In this document: in pieces, positions 2,027 to 56,042 of the stretch | Layout of the letters: the number at the start of each line of letters is the position of its first letter | How positions within the stretch are numbered: the first letter of the stretch is position 1 | Origin: a virus | Direction: 5' to 3' (one strand) | DNA: 59,936 bases | IMG/VR virus record: IMGVR_UViG_3300045988_033553 | Span: 1 to 59,936 of that record | The notes under the pieces: generated by a model | The model's database searches: none | Seen by the model: the letters and a program-made list of their open reading frames with translations, nothing else | Told to the model about the DNA's origin: nothing | Program-made: the position numbers and the translations under genes

Positions 2027-2401
2027 CTACACCTCCAACAGTTCCGGATTGTCAACCTCGTTTCCAATGACATCTATATAATCCGGATTGAACTCTGCCA
2101 AGGAAACGCTTTCAGCAGTAAATATGGATACGGCTTCCCAACTCAATGAATCATCTGACCATTTGATAACGAAATCTTCATCTTCATACCGGAAGATATC
2201 ATTCTCATAGATTCCCTCATATCCGGTACACTGGCATAATGTATCAATCTGGATTTCAAATCTTTCGGCAACAACATATAAACCGCCATTACACAAAGAA
2301 CCTGTATATATGTAGCAGTGGTTGTCTATGAGCACATAACATCCTTCCACCCATTCGCCATTATCAATCCGCTTTCCACGGCATAAATATCTATTCTCCA
2401 T
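2027..2401 (-). CDS. YopX family protein
   Basis: MENRYLCRGKRIDNGEWVEGCYV is a typical YopX N-terminus; the start overlaps the upstream stop (TGATG). Confidence 0.65.
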   Translation of the reverse strand: MENRYLCRGKRIDNGEWVEGCYVLIDNHCYIYTGSLCNGGLYVVAERFEIQIDTLCQCTGYEGIYENDIFRYEDEDFVIKWSDDSLSWEAVSIFTAESVSLAEFNPDYIDVIGNEVDNPELLEV

Positions 2402-2652
2402 CACTCTTTCACTCCCTTCGGTGTTATCTTGATCCTCTTCACACAATCCGGGCAGAAATCAAACCCGTTCACTCTTGTGGTGCATTCCGTGCAGATTTTC
2501 TTATCACAGGTCATGGTATAACTTTTAAATCCGCTTCCCCGTGCATGTGTGACAACCATATTGACCGGCATATCGCACAGCAGAGTTGATTTTCTTTTTC
2601 CGCAGAATGGACACAGATCATCTTTCGGTATATGTTTAACTATGTCTCCCAT
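2401..2652 (-). CDS. hypothetical zinc-finger protein
   Basis: CPFCGK...CTEC...CPDC cysteine pairs; 83-aa ORF. Confidence 0.5.
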   Translation of the reverse strand: MGDIVKHIPKDDLCPFCGKRKSTLLCDMPVNMVVTHARGSGFKSYTMTCDKKICTECTTRVNGFDFCPDCVKRIKITPKGVKE

Positions 2653-3118
2653 CGCTTTCCCCCTCCATTTCTTTCAGCTTGGCTTCGGCTTCCTCTCTGG
2701 TAAGGAATATCCTTTCGCCAATGTCGCACGGTAAATAGCAACTTTCACACATATCAGCGTCATTTATAGCATCAATTCTCATAACAGTTATGTCTTTATG
2801 AATCTGCTTGATATATAACTGTATAACGCGCATCATAATAACTGGCTCTTTCGCTCCTTTATTTACCCGATACAAAGTATCTCCAACCTTGCACGGCAAT
2901 TTCAGAAGTAATCCCTGTTCTTCAGCATCCTCGTAGTCTTTGAGTTTCCGATATACGGCATCTATTTCCTCGCAATCCGGTTCACATGCCCTTTCCCACA
3001 GTTCATCATCAATCCACAATGGATTTCTCTCCGTTAGTCTCTCCATGCTATTCCTCACTTTCTGCCTTAAGCCATTTAAGCCATCCTTTTTTATTCCAAG
3101 TGCTTCCACCAAGAACAT
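2636..3118 (-). CDS. hypothetical protein, 160 aa
   Basis: Intact minus-strand ORF in the early operon; start uncertain. Confidence 0.45.
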   Translation of the reverse strand: MFLVEALGIKKDGLNGLRQKVRNSMERLTERNPLWIDDELWERACEPDCEEIDAVYRKLKDYEDAEEQGLLLKLPCKVGDTLYRVNKGAKEPVIMMRVIQLYIKQIHKDITVMRIDAINDADMCESCYLPCDIGERIFLTREEAEAKLKEMEGESDGRHS

Positions 3119-38693: not shown

Positions 38694-40475
38694 TCAATAC
38701 CTCCTAAACGGATTTACTGCTGCTTCTACTTTTGCTACATTCCTTCCATTTGTCACTCTAAGCGCAAAGTTTGAAAATACATCTGGCACATCATCCAACT
38801 GCTTTTTACCGGATACTGAATATCTCTTAAGAAGAGACATCATTACTCCGTATGGCTCATTCGGCTTATATGATGATGGGTCTTTAAATATAACGTGCTG
38901 CAATATCCAGTTTGAGCACTGAAAAATCCTTGCTTCCTTATTTGTCTCCGTCGGTGTATCTGTGATATTGCATATCCATCCTTTGGCTTCCACTCGCTTG
39001 TTTACTTCCATTGCGACACGGTCCCCTCCGGCATTTCTCTCAAATTCACATTCCTGAACTTTGTTGTTTGTCAAAACATTTGCTGCATTTTCATACTGAA
39101 CCTCATAATCTGCCGTGTTATCGCAAGCACAATCCACGCAGTAGTAATCTTCTCCGTATTTTTGCAATACAGGCAGAACAAAATAGTCTGTTCCCTTTCC
39201 CTTTGTATCGCACTGACCGGTTACAATCTCCGGCTCTCCATGCGGCAAATTAAGATACCGACGTATTTTATCTTCCGGAAACAGCAATCCCTCACGCTCA
39301 ATCGGTTCCTGTTTGTAAAGGCATCTATATGATATGTCGTCCATCAATAATTGCTGATCTTCGAAAAATTCTTTTGTAAACCCAGAAAACTCATAGTCAA
39401 AGTTACTTTCTCCTGTTTTAGAATCCACATCTGGTACCGCAATAACCTTTACCCTTGGATTTCCCTCGTACATATTCTGGATACGCCCTATGACGTCGTG
39501 TACGCTCCATCTGGTCGCAATATGTATTTCCTTGCAGTTCTTACCATCCGTGTCCTGTATCTTTCTCTGACGAGCATCTACAGCGTATTTATCCCACAAT
39601 TTATCAAGAGTAATAGGATTCATTGCTTCTTCAATGCCGCCGATCATATCGTCAACCAGTAAAAACTTAGAAGCCCTTACTTTACCTGCATTCTTACTAC
39701 CAACAGACGTACATTGTACGGATGGAAACGATTTGTACTTCCCGACATTAAACTGCTCCATCTTTGCATTTGTGCTCGTCACGGAAAGATCCGGAAAAAT
39801 TTCATTCCATGTATATTCTTCCGTATTTGTAACGATATCGTACACACCGTCATAGTACATTCTGGTAATATCTCCGCTATGCGAATAAAAAAGACTGAAA
39901 TCTCTAGGGAACCATCCGGCAACAAGTGCGTGAAACATTTTTTCAACCGTTGTTTTACCAGCACCTGGGACAAGTGATACGCACAGGATGTCATATCTAT
40001 CATCAATCATGCCTTGTAAAGCCTGTGTAAGCCCTATTTTGAGAAATTGCTTTCTTCTTGGCATATAAAACCGTTCTTTAGGATCTCTTTTCTTTTCCAA
40101 ATACTGGAAAGCACTATCCACAACTTTGTTTTGCGCTTCCAAAAGCAAAATTCCGTAATATTTGTCCAGAATTTCATAAGATACCTTGTTTTGGAATGAA
40201 TATTTCTCTAAATCCCATGGTGTGCCACCTGTAGATTGAAAGATAAACTGTTCCGTCAGTTCTTTCGCTCTGGCAGAAACTTTTAATCCATACTCAAAAT
40301 CTTTTTCTGTCAGAATGGCTACCCTTGCCGCTTCTGCCATGGCATCCATAACCTGTTCATCAACGCCATGCACCTGTATGTAATTTTCATATCCATTTAC
40401 TGTGGAAATTAGGCTTGAACTTGCCAAAAGAAAAGCACCTCCGCAAAAAAGCAGAAGTGCCTTGACCTCTGCCAA
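38694..40475 (-). CDS. terL: terminase large subunit
   Basis: Walker A VSLVPGAGKTTVEK, Walker B LLVDDMIGG, and a C-terminal RNaseH-like nuclease region; the N-terminal ~45 aa look hydrophobic, so the true start may be internal. Confidence 0.85.
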   Translation of the reverse strand: MAEVKALLLFCGGAFLLASSSLISTVNGYENYIQVHGVDEQVMDAMAEAARVAILTEKDFEYGLKVSARAKELTEQFIFQSTGGTPWDLEKYSFQNKVSYEILDKYYGILLLEAQNKVVDSAFQYLEKKRDPKERFYMPRRKQFLKIGLTQALQGMIDDRYDILCVSLVPGAGKTTVEKMFHALVAGWFPRDFSLFYSHSGDITRMYYDGVYDIVTNTEEYTWNEIFPDLSVTSTNAKMEQFNVGKYKSFPSVQCTSVGSKNAGKVRASKFLLVDDMIGGIEEAMNPITLDKLWDKYAVDARQRKIQDTDGKNCKEIHIATRWSVHDVIGRIQNMYEGNPRVKVIAVPDVDSKTGESNFDYEFSGFTKEFFEDQQLLMDDISYRCLYKQEPIEREGLLFPEDKIRRYLNLPHGEPEIVTGQCDTKGKGTDYFVLPVLQKYGEDYYCVDCACDNTADYEVQYENAANVLTNNKVQECEFERNAGGDRVAMEVNKRVEAKGWICNITDTPTETNKEARIFQCSNWILQHVIFKDPSSYKPNEPYGVMMSLLKRYSVSGKKQLDDVPDVFSNFALRVTNGRNVAKVEAAVNPFRRY

Positions 40476-40523: not shown

Positions 40524-40874
40524 TTATTCCAATTTTGTTATGTTGTATTTTTCTGTTTTATCATCATATATTTTTGTTTCTAAAATTGCCGTGACGGATT
40601 CTCCAATTTTATTTGAATATTTATTATATGTGTCACTCCCGAATATAGCATATTCTTTACCATTATATTCAACAGTAATCTTGTAAACTGCCGGATGTGT
40701 AATTATTGTTGTTGTTTTACCATTAAAAATCGGTGTTATATATGCTGCTCTGTGGTATTCATCCACTACCTTAACAGTAACACTTGAATATTGTGTATCA
40801 ACACACTTTTTACAGCCAATCAAAAATAATAAAAACAATGTACATAAAATAAAGCATATTATTTTCTTTTTCAT
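40524..40874 (-). CDS. lipoprotein (lipobox LFLIGC), hypothetical
   Basis: Start at MKKKIICFILCTLFLLFLIGCKK: signal peptide plus lipobox Cys. Confidence 0.6.
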   Translation of the reverse strand: MKKKIICFILCTLFLLFLIGCKKCVDTQYSSVTVKVVDEYHRAAYITPIFNGKTTTIITHPAVYKITVEYNGKEYAIFGSDTYNKYSNKIGESVTAILETKIYDDKTEKYNITKLE

Positions 40875-40900
40875 AATGATTCCTTTTTCTGATATACAGC

Positions 40901-41140
40901 TTAAATATTTGCTGAGCAATGTTCTACCTCAAATTCATTATTTTCGACGTTATAAATTTGAACTCCATTCTTGTCCGTCTTGTATCTATCAAACACACAT
41001 ACAGTATTTATGCCATTTCCAACACAGTCTGCATGAAAGTCTATGTTGTATACCTTTTTCTGCCATTTTCCGTTAGCATAAATCTTTGTGTAACCGCCTT
41101 TTCTTGTTTTAATGATTATTTTACTTCTTGTTTTCTTCAT
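40901..41140 (-). CDS. hypothetical protein, 79 aa
   Basis: Intact ORF. Confidence 0.45.
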   Translation of the reverse strand: MKKTRSKIIIKTRKGGYTKIYANGKWQKKVYNIDFHADCVGNGINTVCVFDRYKTDKNGVQIYNVENNEFEVEHCSANI

Positions 41141-41773: not shown

Positions 41774-41985
41774 TCTTCCACCAACTTTCTACCACACATC
41801 GGGCAAAATTCAATTTCCATTGCTATCGCTACGTTCATTCCATTGCTACAACATTTAGCATACTGTGGACATTTATCGATATGGCATTGAATAACATTTA
41901 TATAGCCCAATTTTTTGATTTTAAATTCTCCATATGCAGTTTTATATGATTCTTTCCCATTGCAAAAATCACACATTTCAATCAC
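41770..41985 (-). CDS. hypothetical zinc-ribbon protein, 71 aa
   Basis: CDFCNG...CPMCGRK. Confidence 0.5.
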   Translation of the reverse strand: MIEMCDFCNGKESYKTAYGEFKIKKLGYINVIQCHIDKCPQYAKCCSNGMNVAIAMEIEFCPMCGRKLVEE

Positions 41986-42191
41986 TTCCTAATAAACCTA
42001 GGTTCACAATCTTCCAAAGTTGTTACTTCTATCATTTCCGGTTCATGTCTGCAAATCCTTCCGTTTAAATCAATATATGGTTCCAGTTCTATCTTCGTAC
42101 GAAAACCATATGGAGTTTTGCAATAAGGGCACGCTTTTTTGTCACTTTCAATTGGTGCGCCACAATTTACACAGTTTAAAATCATGCTCAT
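41982..42191 (-). CDS. hypothetical zinc-ribbon protein, 69 aa
   Basis: CVNCGAP...CPYCKTP. Confidence 0.5.
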   Translation of the reverse strand: MSMILNCVNCGAPIESDKKACPYCKTPYGFRTKIELEPYIDLNGRICRHEPEMIEVTTLEDCEPRFIRK

Positions 42192-42230
42192 ACCTCCAAT
42201 TAAAGAACATTACTAAGCGGATATACAAAA

Positions 42231-42344
42231 TTGATGTGGCATGGATTTGCACCATGCATGATTAGTGCACTTCTCGTCATCTAGGTTGCCGGTTTCAACG
42301 AATTATCTTACGGCAATAGCGTTTACCTATTCCGCCACACATCA
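42231..42344 (-). ncRNA. tRNA-Leu-like element with an expanded anticodon arm (114 nt)
   Basis: Acceptor TGATGTG/CACATCA plus A; Leu-type D arm TGGCGGAATAGGTAAACGC; T arm GCATGG-TGCAAAT-CCATGC. The anticodon position is a 6-bp stem TTGCCG/CGGCAA with a 19-nt loop starting UAAGA. Confidence 0.55.
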
Positions 42345-42367
42345 ACGCCAGATTTTTTTCTAGCAAA

Positions 42368-42449
42368 CGCCGTACACAGGATTTGAACCTGCAAGCCTTT
42401 TACAGCCAACGGTTTTCAAGACCGCTCCCTCACCACCCGGACATACGGC
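42368..42449 (-). tRNA. tRNA-Ser (anticodon UGA)
   Basis: Hand fold: acceptor GCCGTAT/GTACGGC, anticodon arm GCGGT-CTTGAAA-ACCGT, long variable arm, T arm GCAGG-TTCAAAT-CCTGT. Confidence 0.75.
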
Positions 42450-42453
42450 ATAG

Positions 42454-42539
42454 CGCAGTGTGCAGGATTCGAACCTACAAAGCGAATAAACGCCCGACCG
42501 GCTAGCAACCGGCTCCAATTCCAATTATGGGAACACTGC
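42454..42539 (-). tRNA. tRNA-Ser (anticodon GCU)
   Basis: Acceptor GCAGTGT/ACACTGC, anticodon arm GCCGG-TTGCTAG-CCGGT, long variable arm, T loop TTCGAAT. Confidence 0.75.
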
Positions 42540-42629
42540 ATCTTGATGGTGCGATTTCTTAAACAACCCATCCATTACAACTGTCTACCACGCACCTGCC
42601 AAACAGTATTTTTAGGGAGTTGAGTGAAA

Positions 42630-42719
42630 TAGGGAAGAGAGGAATCGAACCTCTATTGTTTACCACTTGGAAACTGATTTACAGTCAGCCGCAACACCGC
42701 CAATCGTTGCCGCTTCCCC
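42630..42719 (-). tRNA. tRNA-Tyr (anticodon GUA)
   Basis: Acceptor GGGGAAG/CTTCCCT, D arm GCAA...TTGC, anticodon arm GCTGA-CTGTAAA-TCAGT, long variable arm, T arm AGAGG-TTCGATT-CCTCT. Confidence 0.75.
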
Positions 42720-42796
42720 AAAATGCGCGGACACCTCACTCCATATCTCTGTACGCGACCGCGCTACGCATACAGTATCAGATCAGCTTGGCACCA

Positions 42797-42883
42797 TCGG
42801 AACGGAAGGATTCGAACCTTCAATCCGGCTCTCGTTGTTGTTTTCCGTGTACACGCCACTTTTACCAATTAAGCTACGTTCCG
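42797..42883 (-). ncRNA. tRNA-Pro-like element A without a recognisable anticodon arm
   Basis: Acceptor CGGAACG/CGTTCCG plus A73; TA-GCTT-AATTGGTAA-AAGT D arm; T arm GAAGG-TTCGAAT-CCTTC. The 35 nt between them (GGCGTGTACACGGAAAACAACAACGAGAGCCGGATT) give no 5-bp/7-nt arm. Confidence 0.5.
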
Positions 42884-43003
42884 AAACCGCCATCAGACGG
42901 TTAGCAATAATGTTTATCGTGCCATGCGTTGCACTAGGCATACAAAATGCCGATTACATCCAAACCATAGAGCGCATGCAAGCAAACAGCATAATTTGAC
43001 CGC

Positions 43004-43146
43004 TTAGACAGGCAAGGATTCGAACCTTGCATTATCGGCTTCAGAAAAGGTGTGGTTGCTGACTACGGATGATCGCCCGTCTGCCACTTGGCAACACTCT
43101 TACCGATAGGTTTCTTTACCTGCAATACCCATTCTGCCACTGCCTA
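43004..43146 (-). ncRNA. 143-nt tRNA-shaped element B with a large internal insertion
   Basis: Acceptor TAGGCAG/CTGTCTA (one G-U); D arm GCAG-AATGGGTA-TTGC; T arm GCAAGG-TTCGAAT-CCTTGC; internal 64-nt domain closed by TATCGG/CCGATA. Confidence 0.5.
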
Positions 43147-43411
43147 ACTATATGGGGGAATTATATTTTTGACAGCTCAGGCACCGTGGGATAGATGCCC
43201 GAACTATCAAGTCTGACTGCTATATGGATTGCTTGTCAGCAAATTACGGAACGATCATCATTCATCACCATATAGTCTTACGCCTAATGCCGCGCTCCGC
43301 GGCAAATACCACCGGACGGTCTCGCACCGCCCTTAACAGAATCGTCCTAGTGGCGAAAGGAGAAATACGAACTTTTCGTATTCCGAGATAAGCTTTAAAC
43401 CTATCTCTCAA
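43147..43411 (-). ncRNA. ~265-nt structured, ORF-free spacer (candidate ncRNA domain)
   Basis: Hairpins at 43385-43407, 43364-43382, 43289-43303 and 43229-43242; 8-bp long-range pair CTATATGG/CCATATAG (43220-43227 / 43268-43275). Confidence 0.35.
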
Positions 43412-43500
43412 TCGGAACGGCAGGACTTGAACCTGCGGCTATCAATTCATTAGAGCATGGAAGAATGAAAAGATTGCTCTTTCCTCTGAGCTACGTTCCG
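43412..43500 (-). ncRNA. tRNA-Pro-like element C with an 11-position anticodon helix and a 12-nt loop
   Basis: Same acceptor CGGAACG/CGTTCCG plus A73 as element A; D arm GCTC-AGAGGAAA-GAGC; T arm GCAGG-TTCAAGT-CCTGC; middle ATC-TT-TTCATT [CTTCCATGCTCT] AATGAA-TT-GAT. Confidence 0.5.
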
Positions 43501-43629
43501 TCACAGCGCGCATAGCGCGCCGCTTATGATAGTATTTTTGATCTTTTTATTTTGCCGACGTCCACTAACACCGAATAATTGCTTGCGCCGAGTTTTTTCT
43601 TGCAAAAACCGAATGCCAGTGGACTTAAG

Positions 43630-43794
43630 CTATACTGGATGCTCCGACTTCTCAGACTGGTGCTCAGCGTCACTATCCAGATCGAGCAAATCTCCGGTGC
43701 TGTCCGGTCCTTTTGATTTTGTTATATGTATTCTTTCCTCTGCACAAATGATAGGCAGCTGAAAGCAAATACCAAATATTGGACTATAAGACAT
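43630..43794 (-). CDS. small hypothetical protein, 54 aa
   Basis: Hand translation MSYSPIFGICFQLPIICAEERIHITKSKGPDSTGDLLDLDSDAEHQSEKSEHPV; RBS TGGAGGTAACAGA. Confidence 0.35.
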   Translation of the reverse strand: MSYSPIFGICFQLPIICAEERIHITKSKGPDSTGDLLDLDSDAEHQSEKSEHPV

Positions 43795-43798
43795 TCTG

Positions 43799-43954
43799 TT
43801 ACCTCCACATCAGAAACATGTTCAGCAACAGCAACATCACAAGTACACATAATGCAATTGATGTTTCTTTGTCTTTGGATTCTCTGCCAGATACAAATAG
43901 TATCAGCATAAAAATAACATCCAGCGTCGATATAATCGTTTTAATAATTACCAT
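43799..43954 (-). CDS. small hydrophobic protein, 51 aa
   Basis: ORF 43799-44014 trimmed to MVIIKTIIS..., preceded by GAGAGGAAAACAACC; two hydrophobic helices. Confidence 0.4.
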   Translation of the reverse strand: MVIIKTIISTLDVIFMLILFVSGRESKDKETSIALCVLVMLLLLNMFLMWR

Positions 43955-43974
43955 GGTTGTTTTCCTCTCACAAG

Positions 43975-44046
43975 TTTCTTTAGCAGGATTCGAACCTGCG
44001 AATACTGGAATCAAAATCCAGTGCCTTACCGCTTGGCGATAGCGCT
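43975..44046 (-). pseudogene. tRNA-Gln(UUG)-like with a non-complementary acceptor stem
   Basis: TC-GCCAAGCGGTAAGGC-A-CTGGA-TTTTGAT-TCCAG-ATTC-GCAGG-TTCGAAT-CCTGC is canonical Gln, but 5' AGCGCTA versus 3' TAAAGAA pair at only 3 of 7 positions. Confidence 0.5.
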
Positions 44047-44055
44047 ATATTAACA

Positions 44056-44385
44056 CTACTTTTCCGGCATGTAATAGACCATGTTATCAAATACAGTTAT
44101 TCCCATACAAGGATCATTCATCTCAACGCATCTGATCGATATGTTTTTAGATACTGCAAACATTTCGGCCACCTGTTGTTTATCCATGTTTGTGCTAATA
44201 ACTTGAAAAGCCGAAAATGCCTTGTGCATATCAGAGAATACTTCTTTTTCTCTACCTAAATTTGCATACGTCCCAATGGTAAACGTTTTTCCATCAACCA
44301 TAGCAGTTATCATTCCATGATTTGCTGTGAATACCGCTCGGTCAAAATCAAGCGAAACGTCTTTGCTTTGTGATACTACTCTCAT
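44056..44385 (-). CDS. hypothetical protein, 109 aa
   Basis: Intact ORF. Confidence 0.5.
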   Translation of the reverse strand: MRVVSQSKDVSLDFDRAVFTANHGMITAMVDGKTFTIGTYANLGREKEVFSDMHKAFSAFQVISTNMDKQQVAEMFAVSKNISIRCVEMNDPCMGITVFDNMVYYMPEK

Positions 44386-44502
44386 ACTTTTCCATCCAAT
44401 CTCTTTTTGTTTTTGAGGATATTTAAAGGACTTAGTAGTGCTGATTTTCTCAACCTATCAAACCCCCTCCCCATCCATGCCGAATCATGCTTTGAACATT
44501 GA

Positions 44503-44659: not shown

Positions 44660-45271
44660 TCAATCAGAATTGTCGGAGTTGTTCGGCAATCCTATACAAT
44701 TATTATCCCCAAGATGTGGCAGTTCTTCGGCTGTCAACGCTCTTGCTCTGGACCCCTGATCTCTAACGCCCGGCATATTGAAACCGCAATACTTGTTGAG
44801 TGACGGCATGTAGTTCATGGGGTTCCCTTTGCCGGAAACTTGTAAACCTACCAAACTTTCCTCACGCATTTCGTCAAGTTTTTTGCAGATGTCGGAACCT
44901 GATGAGCCTAGCTGCACGCCATTGACCCATCCATTTAATGTATCTCTATGTATTCCGGCAAAGAATGTAAACCCAACAATATTCACTACTTTCTCGTAGT
45001 CATTGCACAGGTCTATATATATATCTAATACCTCGTTAACCTTATCTGTATCATAGGCATTATTTATATTATTATCATCCTTTAAGTACTTTGGATTAAC
45101 TTTAAATACATTCTCATAGATATATTTACAACAGTTATACCATCTGTTCTGTGACACTTTACACATATCCTCTACATGTCTCTCTTCCATCCAGAGATTT
45201 ATATACATGTCAATGTCATCTTTAAAAACATCAACTGTATTATTTACTTCCTGCATTTTAACTGCTGACAT
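44660..45271 (-). CDS. terS: terminase small subunit, putative
   Basis: 203 aa. FFAGIHRDTLNGWVNG (HTH-like) ... GKGNPMNYMPSLNKYCGFNMPG resembles the Terminase_2-type C-terminal pattern. Confidence 0.55.
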   Translation of the reverse strand: MSAVKMQEVNNTVDVFKDDIDMYINLWMEERHVEDMCKVSQNRWYNCCKYIYENVFKVNPKYLKDDNNINNAYDTDKVNEVLDIYIDLCNDYEKVVNIVGFTFFAGIHRDTLNGWVNGVQLGSSGSDICKKLDEMREESLVGLQVSGKGNPMNYMPSLNKYCGFNMPGVRDQGSRARALTAEELPHLGDNNCIGLPNNSDNSD

Positions 45272-45773: not shown

Positions 45774-46283
45774 TCAAAATTTTTTAACCAACGCCACCAG
45801 ATATTCCTTTTTCAAGAAAAACCTGTTTATTTTATCCGGTGCATCGTGATTTTCTTTTATGAAATTTTCAGCGGCTTTTCTTACCGCTGCCGCATCCGCC
45901 TTATTAATATAAAGCCCTAAATGATGATTTTTACCGGAAAATTTAATCTGTGCACACCATTTGTCACTCTTTTTATAATAATAAACGCCCTTTATACCGG
46001 ATGAATTGTTTTTATTATCCGGGGCGTTGTATGAATTTAAGCAACTACCTTTTTCGTGTACAAGTTTATCCCTTGCGATGCTGATCGACTCCGCGGCGCG
46101 TTCACGCTTGAGACAACCGCATGACTGCACATAACCGCCAGTTAAACGTGACGTGATATAAAAACATTCATTGCCACAAGAACAGGCGCACCGCCATAAT
46201 GTGCGCCCGTTCTTGTCCTTACCGGCTTTTTCAACAACCTTAAGACGCCCTGTTTCAAACCCTTTCAAATCAACCTTTTTCAT
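45774..46283 (-). CDS. AP2-domain DNA-binding protein with an N-terminal Cys cluster
   Basis: GIKGVYYYKKSDKWCAQIKFSGKNHHLGLYINKADAAAVRKAAE is a typical AP2/integrase DNA-binding domain. Confidence 0.7.
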   Translation of the reverse strand: MKKVDLKGFETGRLKVVEKAGKDKNGRTLWRCACSCGNECFYITSRLTGGYVQSCGCLKRERAAESISIARDKLVHEKGSCLNSYNAPDNKNNSSGIKGVYYYKKSDKWCAQIKFSGKNHHLGLYINKADAAAVRKAAENFIKENHDAPDKINRFFLKKEYLVALVKKF

Positions 46284-47303: not shown

Positions 47304-47504
47304 ATGAGAGGAACAGGATTATTTATTAATTGGGAATCAGGAAATAAAAACAGTAATGCGATTCAGGAATTTGAAAAAAACGGCATCAACTGGGAATATA
47401 ACCACTTTGGAACACTTACAGCCGACTTTTACGGTATCGGGATTTTTGAAAAGGTCGATTTTGAACATATCCAAGGCGATGTGTTTGAAATCTGCATAGC
47501 ATAG
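47304..47504 (+). CDS. hypothetical protein, 66 aa
   Basis: ATG 2 nt after the previous stop; GGGAGGTG RBS. Confidence 0.5.
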   Translation: MRGTGLFINWESGNKNSNAIQEFEKNGINWEYNHFGTLTADFYGIGIFEKVDFEHIQGDVFEICIA

Positions 47505-47582
47505 CCGAAACGCTCCGATCTGGAGCGTCAGCCGCGGGATGGTCGCCGTGGCTCTGATGATGGCAGACCAGAAAGGGAAAAT

Positions 47583-47900
47583 ATGAGAACATACGAGCAG
47601 GATTTGAAAGAGCTTAATATTTCAGCAGAAGAATTTGATAACATAATTTCACACATTTACGATAAAACAGCCGATGAAATGGCGGTACTTGCTAAGGCGA
47701 TTAAAAGCGGCGCGGCTGTTCTCCCGACTGTAAAAAGAGCATTTGAGCGCGTTCTTGCAATTAGACAGGCAGAAAGACAGGAAGCATATAACATTTATTA
47801 TAACGATTTAAATACTATGTGTCATAGCTGTAAAAAATGCGGTATAAGTTGTAACGGTACAATTTGTAAAGCTTGGACTGGTTGCGCAATGAAAAATTAA
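47583..47900 (+). CDS. hypothetical protein, 105 aa, with a C-terminal Cys cluster
   Basis: RBS AAAGGGAAAAT; CHSCKKCGISCNGTICKAWTGC. Confidence 0.5.
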   Translation: MRTYEQDLKELNISAEEFDNIISHIYDKTADEMAVLAKAIKSGAAVLPTVKRAFERVLAIRQAERQEAYNIYYNDLNTMCHSCKKCGISCNGTICKAWTGCAMKN

Positions 47901-54631: not shown

Positions 54632-54840
54632 GTGTTACCTTTAGTGTTACCTTTGATTTTGACCTTTAGAAAAGACACCATTCAAAAACTCCTTTCTTTC
54701 AGTAAAATCAAGGCTTCACAAGGTTTTCTTAAATAAAAATAAAGTAGCGGAAGGGAGATTCGAACTCGGTATCAATTCTCTCAAACCCGCATAAATACTG
54801 AATTTCTTTATCTCCAAAGGTGTTACCTCGTGTTACCTTT
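54632..54840. mobile_element. attP region: tRNA 3'-end core flanked by four GTGTTACCT(TT) arm-type repeats
   Basis: Repeats at 54632-54642, 54644-54654, 54820-54828 and 54830-54840. The core 54744-54767 reads on the minus strand GAGTTCGAATCTCCCTTCCGCTAC (T loop, T stem 3' strand, acceptor 3' strand). Confidence 0.6.
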
Positions 54841-56042
54841 TACATTGATAATGCTTTTGCAATATATTCCTGCATTTCACTCTCTGTCTTGTTATTAAAA
54901 TAGTAATGATCGAGAGTTGTTCTGATATCTGTATGCCCCATTTGTGTTTTTATTACCGATTCTGGAACATTTCCATCTATCAACTTTGTTGCATATGTCT
55001 TTCTTGCCTTGTGAATTGAACGTTCACCAATTCCTATTCTATCACATATCACATATAGCCGCCTTGTAAATGCCTGACCTTTTATTCGTTTACCGTTTTT
55101 CATAAAAATATATTGCCCAAATGGATTGAGCATTTTTATTTTTCTCATAAGTTCTTTGGTATCTGCGGTAATTATAACATCTCTAAACCCGGCATCACTT
55201 TTAGGAAAATTTTGAACATCAAATACATATTTGCCATTATCATCTCTATATCTTATTTCTGTCTTTGATATATGTATCTTATTTTCTCCGACATCAGACC
55301 ATGAGAGGGTAGATATTTCCCCAACTCTCAATCCTGTTTTAAATGCCAAAATAATGCCAAGTTCTATCAATGTAGGCTCATCTTCCATTACAAATCGTTC
55401 AATTAAAAGTTCCTCATCCTTAGAAAATACCAATTCGCAGTCTGACTTATGGTTCTTTTTAAATGACTTTTCCGAAATTTCCAAATCACCCATAAAACTG
55501 GTTATGCTCAGGCTGGTATAATGTTTTTTCTTTGCATATTTGAAAATTCCGTTAATCAATATCCGCATATCAGAATAAGCTTTTTGCGTAAGTTCCAGTT
55601 TTGAAATAGCTGTTTTTATGAATGATTCCAATATTTCTTCATCAATGTACCGGATTTTTCTATTTGCAATCGGCAAATACTTATTTTCAAAAAATCTTTT
55701 AAAATTTGTCTCGTACTTGTCCTTTGTCTGTCTTGTTATTTCACCATATTCAAGTTTTTCAGAAATCCAATTAGAATATACTTGAATAACTGTAGGTTCA
55801 TCCTCCTTAGCTTTATAGAACTTTACTATTTCATCTTCAATTGCTTTTTCAGATGTTCTCTTTACAAGTCTCTTTCCTCTCTTATTATCTTCATCTGGCA
55901 AATATGTGTAAAACTTTCCATCTTTTCCTTGCCAAATGCTGTAAGTGTGTTTTTCAATAAATTTTTTCCTTTCGTTCATTTCAATTTTTTTCTGAATGGT
56001 GTCTATGTTGATAATACCATTTTCGATGGCAATATTCAACAA
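54840..56042 (-). CDS. int: tyrosine recombinase / phage integrase
   Basis: 400 aa. GLRVGEI (Arg I), HKARKTYAT (His-x-x-Arg), GHTDIRTTLDHYY (His/Tyr nucleophile region). Confidence 0.9.
   Translation of the reverse strand: MLNIAIENGIINIDTIQKKIEMNERKKFIEKHTYSIWQGKDGKFYTYLPDEDNKRGKRLVKRTSEKAIEDEIVKFYKAKEDEPTVIQVYSNWISEKLEYGEITRQTKDKYETNFKRFFENKYLPIANRKIRYIDEEILESFIKTAISKLELTQKAYSDMRILINGIFKYAKKKHYTSLSITSFMGDLEISEKSFKKNHKSDCELVFSKDEELLIERFVMEDEPTLIELGIILAFKTGLRVGEISTLSWSDVGENKIHISKTEIRYRDDNGKYVFDVQNFPKSDAGFRDVIITADTKELMRKIKMLNPFGQYIFMKNGKRIKGQAFTRRLYVICDRIGIGERSIHKARKTYATKLIDGNVPESVIKTQMGHTDIRTTLDHYYFNNKTESEMQEYIAKALSM

Follow-up and report, generated by a model that had tools for sequence, protein, structure and literature searches.

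Candidate non-decoding, tRNA-derived RNA genes in a recombination-shuffled island of a gut phage

What might a phage do with genes that look like tRNAs and yet have no place for an anticodon? The question is raised by the virus record IMGVR_UViG_3300045988_033553 of IMG/VR, analysed here over its whole stretch of 59,936 nucleotides (nt), which we call the window and which represents the ~60-kilobase (kb) genome of a tailed phage with nearly every gene on the minus strand. Between the large terminase gene terL and an open reading frame (ORF) labelled terS lies an RNA island (42231-44046) in which a sequence-only reading had noticed, next to tRNA genes, four tRNA-shaped elements with a rebuilt centre, here named A, B, C and D (Table 1). 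The island is most likely a recombination-shuffled array of accessory cassettes, in which working tRNA genes are mixed with genes for non-decoding tRNA-derived small RNAs. As to what these RNAs do, we give about even odds (a probability near 0.5) to trans-acting mimics of the tRNA body, be it as decoy, sponge or cofactor, which would be processed like tRNAs without decoding.

The anomaly of the four elements can be delimited precisely. tRNA genes were called with ARAGORN (introns being allowed in extra runs), the Rfam tRNA model RF00005 and a permissive Rfam scan (E <= 5) of positions 41900-44400. When both strands of the window were scanned for a T arm combined with a fully paired 7/7 acceptor and a D arm, matches occurred only at 42.3-43.5 kb, and in each of A, B, C and D all seven acceptor positions pair and a D arm stands in register. 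What is absent from all four, by Rfam, ARAGORN and folding, is an anticodon stem of 5 base pairs (bp) with a 7-nt loop, an arm found in canonical form in the two tRNA-Ser genes, the tRNA-Tyr gene and the tRNA-Gln remnant of the same island. The sequence-only reading had been unable to place such an arm in the four elements, and rightly so, since the callers fail exactly there. It had also credited all four with acceptor stem, D arm and 5-bp T arm, which stands for the acceptor and D arms and for the T arms of B and D; in A and C the T stem is one pair longer, at 6 bp. The central folds that it had drawn, with a long arm and a 12-nt loop in D and no stable centre in B, agree with thermodynamic folding.

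The two elements with the longer T stem deserve closer description. Element A combines a 7-bp acceptor (UGAUGUG/CACAUCA), the D arm GCGGAAUAGGUAAACGC, a central domain of 61 nt, a 6-bp T stem (GCAUGG/CCAUGC) with the T loop UGCAAAU, and a discriminator A. Its centre forms a 6-bp hairpin with a 19-nt loop; in the lineage this hairpin covaries, and so does a 3-bp pairing, GAU/AUC, by which a pseudoknot would arise. The variants of the lineage are compensatory: UUGCCG/CGGCAA exchanges with UUGUCG/CGACAA, A-U with G-C in the T stem, and GAU..AUC with GAG..CUC. Element C has another 7-bp acceptor (UAGGCAG/CUGUCUA), the D arm GCAGAAUGGGUAUUGC, whose loop is variant, and the loop UUCGAAU on a 6-bp T stem (GCAAGG/CCUUGC); its centre consists of a stunted 4-bp hairpin with a 6-nt loop (AGGU-AAAGAA-ACCU), then a long branched helix (UAUCGG...CCGAUA), then AU. 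Neither element contains a loop able to present an anticodon, neither is matched by Rfam at E <= 5 and neither is called by ARAGORN; the z scores of their thermodynamic folds are -1.45 for A and -2.1 for C.

Sequences related to A were collected by a pattern taken from its D loop and T loop, giving 44 distinct sequences, of which 29 diverse members were aligned and turned into a calibrated covariance model, R1. The pattern matched at least 120 viral contigs, many of them unrelated to the window phage, and just three contigs (from Oscillospiraceae, Clostridium and Metabacillus) in the genomes of 185,579 bacterial and archaeal species. One plan is common to the 44 sequences: a 7-bp acceptor of almost any sequence, UG, a Leu-like D arm, an unalignable centre of 50-117 nt, usually AU, a 6-bp T stem with the loop UGCAAAU, the 3' strand of the acceptor and one discriminator base. 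Covariation among homologues, which had been proposed as a check, is strong in the acceptor and T stems of the family to which A and C belong. In the 29 members, standard pairs make up 98.3% of the cells in three helices, and 10 of 16 pairs show double-sided changes (126 cells), a level reached by none of 500 shuffles; when the partners are slid by 1-3 columns as a control, pairing falls to 28-45%. Acceptors of at least 20 different sequences take part in the covariation. A 6-bp T stem is found in 29 of 29 members, and the four of its six pairs that vary all covary.

R1 finds further paralogues in relatives of the window phage, with lengths of 98, 145 and 158 nt, and in the 206-kb viral contig L286 it detects four tandem copies of 117, 119, 142 and 170 nt (2113-2868, minus strand), directly upstream of a thyX-like gene and adjoining a tRNA-Trp. 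The paralogues found by the model differ in their D and T loops, and all have the 6-bp T stem and a short junction before it; the 7/6 acceptor branch is therefore the hallmark of the family, while the G at position 55 that characterizes the main subfamily marks a subfamily only. At the position of the anticodon arm the family is reduced: after the D arm most members have only a 5-16-nt linker, followed by a purine-rich triplet, often UAA or UGA. The next helix typically opens with GA and closes with UC, 2 nt before the T stem, and a helix of at least 6 bp that ends at this point is present in 75% of members, compared with 33% of shuffled centres. Positions U8, A14, A15, G18, G19 and C56 and the U before the T stem are kept. 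Element A has every feature of the family, and C has the 6-bp T stem, the AU and the long helix, combined with variant loops. Judged by these sequence features, A and C belong to a phage-borne family descended from class II tRNA-Leu. In the modelled architecture, such an RNA would be a class II tRNA minus its anticodon arm and with an expanded, hypervariable arm beside the T arm, and its 7-bp acceptor and 6-bp T stem would form a 13-bp stack. The parts that build the top half and the elbow (acceptor, U8, Leu-like D arm with G18 and G19, T loop and a junction of the A15-U48 type) are predicted to be kept.

The family extends to cultured phages. BLAST searches followed by R1 gave full-length matches of 67-78 bits in SPP1, the SPbeta-like SPbetaL4, the Leuconostoc phages Ln-9 and phiLM33_01, Listeria phage LP-114 and Lactiplantibacillus phage H1-Guo. 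Enterococcus phage EFDG1 gave only a split match (5' part 32.7 bits, T arm 24.4 bits) around a long insert, inside a tRNA array. None of these sites bears an RNA annotation, and permissive scans with Rfam returned nothing but tRNA in the island, in 10 diverse family loci and in 136 kb of sequence from 8 relatives. The SPP1 member lies within the 'moron' segment of genes 8-10 and overlaps the doubtful gene 10. The SPP1 re-annotation of 2018 lists gp10 without relatives and does not mention a tRNA, and 'gene 10' may be an RNA gene annotated wrongly. Unrelated myophages of the Grass/SPG24/BSP38 type have copies 84% identical to that of SPP1, within flanks that are unrelated as well, which suggests that the element moves as an accessory gene complete in itself; in some SPP1-like phages the SPP1 element region is matched only in part. 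Within tRNA arrays the members stand on the same strand as the tRNAs with spacers of 2-20 nt. At about half of the loci a member stands alone between ORFs, often with late regulator or moron genes on one side and terminase or head genes on the other.

R1 does not match B or D, and these two elements tell a different story. Element D retains the acceptor, D arm and 5-bp T arm of a tRNA-Ile(UAU). D and the normal Ile(UAU) gene of the lineage share the same flanks, with D exactly in the Ile slot, and from this D can be read as a derivative of the lineage's own tRNA-Ile(UAU). Its new arm has 11 steps and consists of AUC/GAU, a UU/UU internal loop, UUCAUU/AAUGAA and a 12-nt loop. As the alignment leaves no trace of the Ile anticodon stem (CUCGG/CCGAG) in D, the arm was replaced rather than interrupted. 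The minimum free energy structure is the cloverleaf, with a frequency of 0.40 and a z score of -2.9. A compensatory change from C-G to U-A in the D stem is found in 6 of 13 D variants, and in the new helix wobble pairs arise at two positions; these helix-preserving substitutions are modest evidence that D may be under constraint. A sub-type, D2, has a differing 6-bp stem and shares with D the pyrimidine-rich AUCUUUUCAU(U/C)CUU. A search with AUCUUUUCAU plus the T-loop motif found no D outside this lineage, the other matches being attributable to chance. Element B probably goes back to the same tRNA gene, to judge from its acceptor (CGGAACG/CGUUCCG), which it shares with the lineage's tRNA-Ile(UAU); its D arm and 5-bp T arm are normal. 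Its anticodon arm is replaced by the palindrome CGUGUACACG and an A-rich unstructured stretch, its centre has no stable fold (z 0.07), and ARAGORN offers a dubious 'Arg-ACG' call. Five near-identical variants of B are known, and B occurs in 40 of 112 island variants alongside a normal Ile gene.

These island variants come from relatives with near-identical flanks and a terL 96-98% identical to that of the window, and amount to 112 distinct sequences of 1.7-6.3 kb between the two flanking genes. Among them the elements are gained and lost independently of each other. Three slots are strictly allelic. The Ile slot holds the normal tRNA-Ile(UAU) in 77 of the 112 variants and D or D2 in 31; the C slot is occupied by C in 30 variants and by the 158-nt Leu-like paralogue in 37; the Gln slot has an intact tRNA-Gln in 24 and a broken form in 83. 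In none of the three were both alleles found together. Two chimeras, which read from the 5' end begin as D and continue as A (L154) or begin as Gln and continue as C (L114), have their junctions in the T loop, and they appear to reveal how the shuffling of the island proceeds. Among the relatives there are also otherwise normal-looking tRNAs with anticodon loops of 4 or 6 nt, namely a 69-nt element in L104 and a 67-nt element in L126; one of them is called 'tRNA-???' with a 2-nt anticodon by ARAGORN. These may be more non-decoding forms, or pseudogenes.

How could such RNAs act? The units would be co-transcribed with their neighbours and fold into an L shape, upon which host RNase P at the 5' end, and RNase Z followed by CCA addition at the 3' end, could release stable RNAs of 90-145 nt. 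Having no anticodon loop, the released RNAs would be unable to decode, and those from A and C would in addition have a non-standard stack length. They could then act in trans as tRNA-body mimics by occupying or diverting a host factor that reads the elbow and the acceptor end, the likeliest candidate being a defence or toxin activity directed at tRNAs, while the variable arm would be free to diverge. A trans role is favoured because derived features beyond the needs of processing are conserved, copies are multiplied and the gene moves alone. Tentatively, and at somewhat less than even odds, we would specify this further: A and C would belong to an undescribed, widespread class of RNAs of Firmicutes phages, Leu-derived, devoid of an anticodon arm and with a 7/6 branch, which spread as self-contained genes, are processed by the host and neutralize or redirect a tRNA-directed activity, be it a defence nuclease or toxin, RNase P or RNase Z, the CCA enzyme or leucyl-tRNA synthetase (LeuRS). 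Element D would be a recent independent re-invention.

Several observations weigh against a trans role or the evidence brought forward for it. The near-invariance of D and T loops in the pattern-collected sample is partly due to collection by exact motifs. Clustering of the ORFs within 4 kb on either side of 33 diverse members revealed no recurrent partner protein, only terminase genes and lineage-specific ORFs. Antisense matches of the centres of A-D within the phage are at chance level, the best being 10-12 nt long. The RNA ligase RtcB, which ~20 relatives and Dulem virus 39, a phage from lemur faeces, encode on a variable cassette at the island end that faces terL, is absent from the window, where an uncharacterized ORF (40524-40919) occupies its slot; the RtcB proteins of the relatives are 63-75% identical to that of Dulem virus 39 over their full length. 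Since B has no stable replacement structure and shows very little variation, it may simply be decaying. Finally, the tight placement of members between ORFs fits a processing site in cis equally well.

This last point leads to the most serious rival, which we consider unlikely: the elements would be 'punctuation', folding only so that RNase P and RNase Z cut polycistronic transcripts apart or give them defined ends, for instance where moron genes adjoin late structural genes or small ORFs adjoin ncRNAs, with the released RNA being functionless. Solitary members indeed sit 5-40 nt from the co-oriented ORFs around them, as in L258 (34 nt ahead of a terL-like gene) and L286 (15 nt ahead of thyX); in H1-Guo the neighbours are an ArpU/DUF1492-type regulator and terS, and in SPP1 they are the moron genes and the scaffold gene 11. 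A hypervariable centre is also what would be expected if the top half alone mattered. However, RNase P needs little beyond an acceptor/T minihelix, so that the Leu-type D arm, the 6-bp T stem, the AU junction and the long helix, which are kept across very divergent acceptors, are left unexplained. Tandem multi-copy arrays, as in L286 or in the pair of A and C here, and a self-contained horizontal spread likewise exceed what punctuation requires.

A role as a leucine-accepting but non-decoding tRNA is distinctly improbable. LeuRS would here charge RNAs of the A/C type, which would serve as a sink for the synthetase or for leucine, or as a non-ribosomal aminoacyl donor. This is possible in principle because bacterial LeuRS does not require the anticodon arm, whose deletion costs only 2.5-fold in affinity (PMC2377443). 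The enzyme relies instead on A73, U8-A14, A15-U48, G18-U55 and G19-C56, with substitutions of A73 costing 45-143-fold (PMC2377443), and the family does keep U8, the two adenines, the G18 G19 pair, C56 and the U before the T stem. Yet the discriminator is A in only 17 of the 29 aligned members (59%; U in 7, C in 4, G in 1), being U in the copies of SPP1 and SPbetaL4, and the G55 of the main subfamily, in place of U55, alters the G18-U55 contact. The lack of the essential A73 in so many members, together with G55, therefore disfavours leucylation, and the 13-bp stack departs from tRNA-Leu as well.

Could the non-canonical elements be genomic debris, that is, functionless tRNA pseudogenes and scars of recombination? 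As a general account this is scarcely more than a slim prospect. The T-loop chimeras, the loss of Gln acceptor pairing in 83 of the 112 variants, the missing central fold of B and the 4- or 6-nt anticodon loops in relatives all speak for it. Debris cannot explain A and C, with their covariation, their presence in many unrelated phage groups, their near absence from bacterial genomes and their conserved derived features, and D retains all four helices through its substitutions. The view that the elements are not products of random decay is thus upheld for A and C by covariation, R1 and their occurrence in many phages, and more weakly for D; it is not supported for B, in which a structured replacement was not seen, or for the Gln element, and debris is a plausible reading for Gln and perhaps B only. 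In the Gln element the D, anticodon and T arms are intact, and the Rfam model aligns over positions 6-65 only, so the acceptor strands are unpaired: its 3' acceptor strand UAAAGAA pairs with the 5' strand at just 3 of 7 positions. The sequence-only reading had seen these unpaired strands correctly and had taken the element for one with the opposite defect to A-D. It is best read as a truncated pseudo-tRNA whose 3' acceptor strand was probably replaced, and not as an opposite design. The broken 3' end UAAAGAA is constant and runs straight into the leader of the ORF for a small membrane protein, and the 3' half is identical in L028, L031 and L159 though joined to differing 5' halves. Intact Gln genes occur in Dulem virus 39 as well.

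That the elements are tRNAs with small introns, whose inserts would be excised, for example by an endonuclease and RtcB, to give functional tRNAs, had been suggested from the sequence and is very improbable. RtcB is present in related islands, and with introns allowed ARAGORN yields a 'tRNA-Pyl(CUA)' for D and a 'tRNA-Val(AAC)' for B. Across several thresholds, such solutions are contrived: the intron positions (30/31 and 34/35) are non-canonical, the stems are left mismatched, there is neither a bulge-helix-bulge nor an Rfam intron match, the inserts measure 12-64 nt, and the putative anticodon loop is not conserved in short D variants. Moreover, the arm of D is replaced, most members of the family of A have only their short linker in place of an anticodon arm, and no suppressor tRNA is needed, as the phage ORFs read through in the standard code. 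Equally hard to credit are two further early suggestions, a Y RNA of the YrlA type or pieces of one large ornate RNA (ROOL/GOLLD), for which the tRNA-like T and D loops and the adjacent tRNA genes speak, since the scans of island and relatives match tRNA only, the Ro-binding stem of YrlA is formed by the ends and its acceptor is closed whereas here the termini lie at the acceptor and abut neighbouring tRNAs (no systematic search for an rsr gene was made), and discrete units of 87-143 nt that are independently present or absent among variants are not one large RNA.

The remainder of the island comprises working tRNA genes and a further RNA. Three ordinary tRNAs had been proposed; the two tRNA-Ser genes are indeed canonical, and tRNA-Tyr(GUA) is not fully so, having an unusual 5-bp D stem, a weak variable arm and an Rfam score of 26.6 bits (threshold 29) with the D arm skipped. 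A relative of this tRNA-Tyr stands next to a RAGATH-21 RNA in MT835739.

The ~265-nt stretch between C and D had been described as a spacer with long-range pairing. Paired it is, but it is no mere spacer, because it contains a conserved structured RNA of ~200 nt, here called S RNA. This is the most widely shared block of the island, present in most island variants as alleles that are 70-87% identical. Its consensus has 49 pairs with 96.9% of cells paired and 12 double-changed pairs, compared with 5.5+-1.4 after shuffling (reached in 0 of 500) and 0-5 in slid controls. Its 5' module folds like a miniature tRNA (GCCACU.., small hairpin, ..GGGCGG-UGCGAGA-CCGUCC-GGUGGU), in which 6+6 bp are stacked and UGCGAGA resembles a T loop; on the 3' side of the module follow a three-way junction and a 16-bp terminal hairpin. 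The module occurs in >120 viral contigs, including phages just ~75% identical to that of the window, and the middle part of S RNA is conserved in Dulem virus 39. Rfam gives no match to S RNA at E <= 5. A hammerhead core was considered, as some alleles have CUGANGA-like loops, and was rejected, there being no GAAA/stem II arrangement and no Rfam match.

Pyrimidine-rich strings resembling an anti-Shine-Dalgarno sequence recur in this part of the island: CUCCUUUC or CCUCCUUUC just before the S RNA fold (43355-43363), UCAUUCUUCCAUG in D (43455-43475) and CAUCCUUUCG in D2 (L169, L213). D2 and one allele of the S leader have a 10-mer in common. It is possible that these strings could pair with ribosome-binding sites. 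The GC hairpin next to D lies directly upstream of the Ile/D slot in both alleles.

The sequence-only reading had seen no convincing minus-strand ORF above ~55 amino acids (aa) in the core of the gap; ~325 nt of the island (43630-43954) hold two short ORFs of 51 and 54 aa, each preceded by a good Shine-Dalgarno sequence. Neither matches a Pfam or PHROG family. The 54-aa ORF has 10 synonymous and 16 non-synonymous changes at its variant sites and is putative, and the island of Dulem virus 39 also holds a small hydrophobic ORF similar to the 51-aa one.

As to the genome setting, the terL assignment made from the sequence is confirmed by Pfam and by the terminase of Dulem virus 39, and terminases 96-98% identical to that of the window are encoded by >150 IMG/VR contigs, mainly from the human gut. 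The terS label of the ORF at 44660-45271 finds no such support, Pfam and PHROG searches giving no match. Upstream of it, an ORF at 45774-46283 (minus strand) has a weak match to an AP2 domain (E 3e-4) under the Pfam cutoff, and a zinc-ribbon ORF (41982-42191, minus strand) lies directly downstream of element A. A type II hammerhead ribozyme (47503-47572, plus strand; Rfam 62.4 bits, threshold 37) is encoded on the strand that few genes use, shortly ahead of a plus-strand ORF (47583-47900). Dulem virus 39 also has a hammerhead (L001 863-927) and, in its island, a RAGATH-27 RNA (L001 5033-5116); in Rfam scans RAGATH-21 and RAGATH-27 were found in other phages only and not in the island of the window. 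A promoter scan did not rise above chance (12 sites, 14.9 expected). The tyrosine integrase suggests a temperate lifestyle, and the host of the island is probably a temperate gut phage of Firmicutes.

Table 1. Positions of the RNA elements, genes and reference loci; coordinates refer to the window unless another sequence is named.
Feature	Position	Strand	Evidence or remark
terL (large terminase)	38694-40475		Pfam terminase nuclease domains; protein 82% identical to annotated terminase of Dulem virus 39
Element A, candidate Leu-like non-decoding RNA	42231-42344	-	R1 88.4 bits, E 9e-17
tRNA-Ser(UGA), class II, canonical	42367-42450	-	ARAGORN; Rfam tRNA 32.6 bits
tRNA-Ser(GCU), class II, canonical	42453-42539	-	ARAGORN; Rfam tRNA 42.1 bits
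tRNA-Tyr(GUA), atypical	42629-42720	-	ARAGORN; anticodon loop CUGUAAA canonical
Element B	42797-42883	-	Rfam tRNA 46.1 bits, 30 nt where the model has 17
Element C, large member of the Leu-like superfamily	43004-43146	-	R1 39.8 bits, E ~1e-5, full model length
S RNA, conserved structured RNA of ~200 nt	43159-43363	-	RNAalifold, pair counts
Element D	43412-43500	-	Rfam tRNA 47.3 bits, 28 nt where the model has 11
GC hairpin GCGCGC-UAU-GCGCGC	43506-43522	-	Read from the sequence
Short ORF, 54 aa, acidic	43630-43794	-	GGAGG at 7-nt spacing
Short ORF, 51 aa, two hydrophobic segments MVIIKTIISTLDVIFMLILFVSGRESKDKETSIALCVLVMLLLLNMFLMWR	43799-43954	-	GAGAGGA upstream
tRNA-Gln(UUG) remnant	43975-44046	-	Rfam match at 43981-44041
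Tyrosine integrase	54840-56042		
RtcB gene, Dulem virus 39	L001 7460-8665		
RtcB gene, relative	L023 6732-7937		
SPP1 member of the R1 family	NC_004166.2 6647-6756 (L429 2497-2606)	+	R1 71.9 bits

Phage tRNA genes are now viewed as weapons against bacterial immunity that cleaves tRNAs. If a trans role holds true, non-decoding RNAs with a tRNA body would be a second arm of that conflict, or else a new use of host enzymes for tRNA processing. Even in SPP1, which has been under study as a model phage for 50 years, the family has been overlooked in annotation, and its function is directly testable because cultured and genetically tractable phages carry it. It can also be regarded as a natural counterpart of the engineered 'tRNA scaffold' for RNA expression, with the 7/6 acceptor branch representing an uncharacterized architecture.

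Among known systems, tRNA mimics as a kind are familiar, and a description of a Leu-derived family without an anticodon was not found in the literature, where it could sit unnamed in catalogues of predicted RNAs. A large computational catalogue of structured phage RNAs predicted from IMG/VR lists candidates classed as 'tRNA or tRNA-like', of which some are expressed in human gut samples (Fremin and co-workers 2023, PMC10690425); compared by description only, the paper describes neither a Leu-derived family lacking the anticodon arm nor a link to SPP1 or another model phage. The tRNA-like domain of tmRNA, mascRNA, YrlA, the tRNA-like structures of plant viruses and the Bacillus cereus tRNA-Other likewise employ the geometry of acceptor, T arm and elbow, without decoding, to engage proteins that process or bind tRNAs. 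None of these mimics resembles the family in sequence or model (Rfam scans of the island and of 10 family loci), and they differ in kind: YrlA is circularly permuted with respect to the elements, tmRNA carries an ORF and has no normal D arm, mascRNA is eukaryotic and tRNA-Other keeps its anticodon arm.

Within canonical tRNAs the closest likeness is to class II tRNA-Leu, seen in the D arm GCGGAAUAGGUAAACGC, in U8, A14/A15 and G18 G19, in a U capable of pairing as A15-U48, and in the long helix that precedes the T arm between flanks of 2-3 nt; the D arm of Escherichia coli tRNA-Leu, GCGGAAUUGGUAGACGC, is close to GCGGAAUAGGUAAACGC. Unlike tRNA-Leu, the family lacks an anticodon arm in most members and a 7-nt anticodon loop in all of them, its T stem is 6 bp long, position 55 is G in the main subfamily and the discriminator can be a base other than A. 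A branch other than 7/5 with a total of 13 bp is shared with tRNA-Sec (8/5 or 9/4). Irregular tRNAs of this sort occur in polycistrons and phages, some of them possibly regulatory, and a 7/6 split is not described for allo-tRNAs (PMC5389517). The family is set apart from tRNA-Sec and allo-tRNAs by this split and by the lack of an anticodon, and a context of selB, selA or toxin-antitoxin genes was not seen.

The closest analogues, in location only, are the species 1 and 2 RNAs of phage T4 (rnaC and rnaD), which are 139 and 119 nt long and lie in the phage tRNA cluster directly after tRNA-Arg on the same strand. Like the elements described here, rnaC ends in a T arm (CCGGG-UUCGAAU-CCCGG) and an acceptor-like 3' strand. 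Unlike the family, the T4 RNAs come from a phage of a Gram-negative host and have neither a Leu-type D arm nor a 6-bp T stem, and homology was not detected by R1 (8.6 bits, E 0.46 for rnaC; no match for rnaD). The 10-mer UUGCCGUAAG is common to rnaC (L343 2409-2547) and element A (42303-42312), at a comparable place after a degenerate D-arm-like region, a coincidence with a chance probability of ~0.015 by rough estimate that finds no homology support from R1. We know of no function established for rnaC or rnaD to date, and the study of a family that can be followed through so many phages may shed light on these long-unexplained RNAs.

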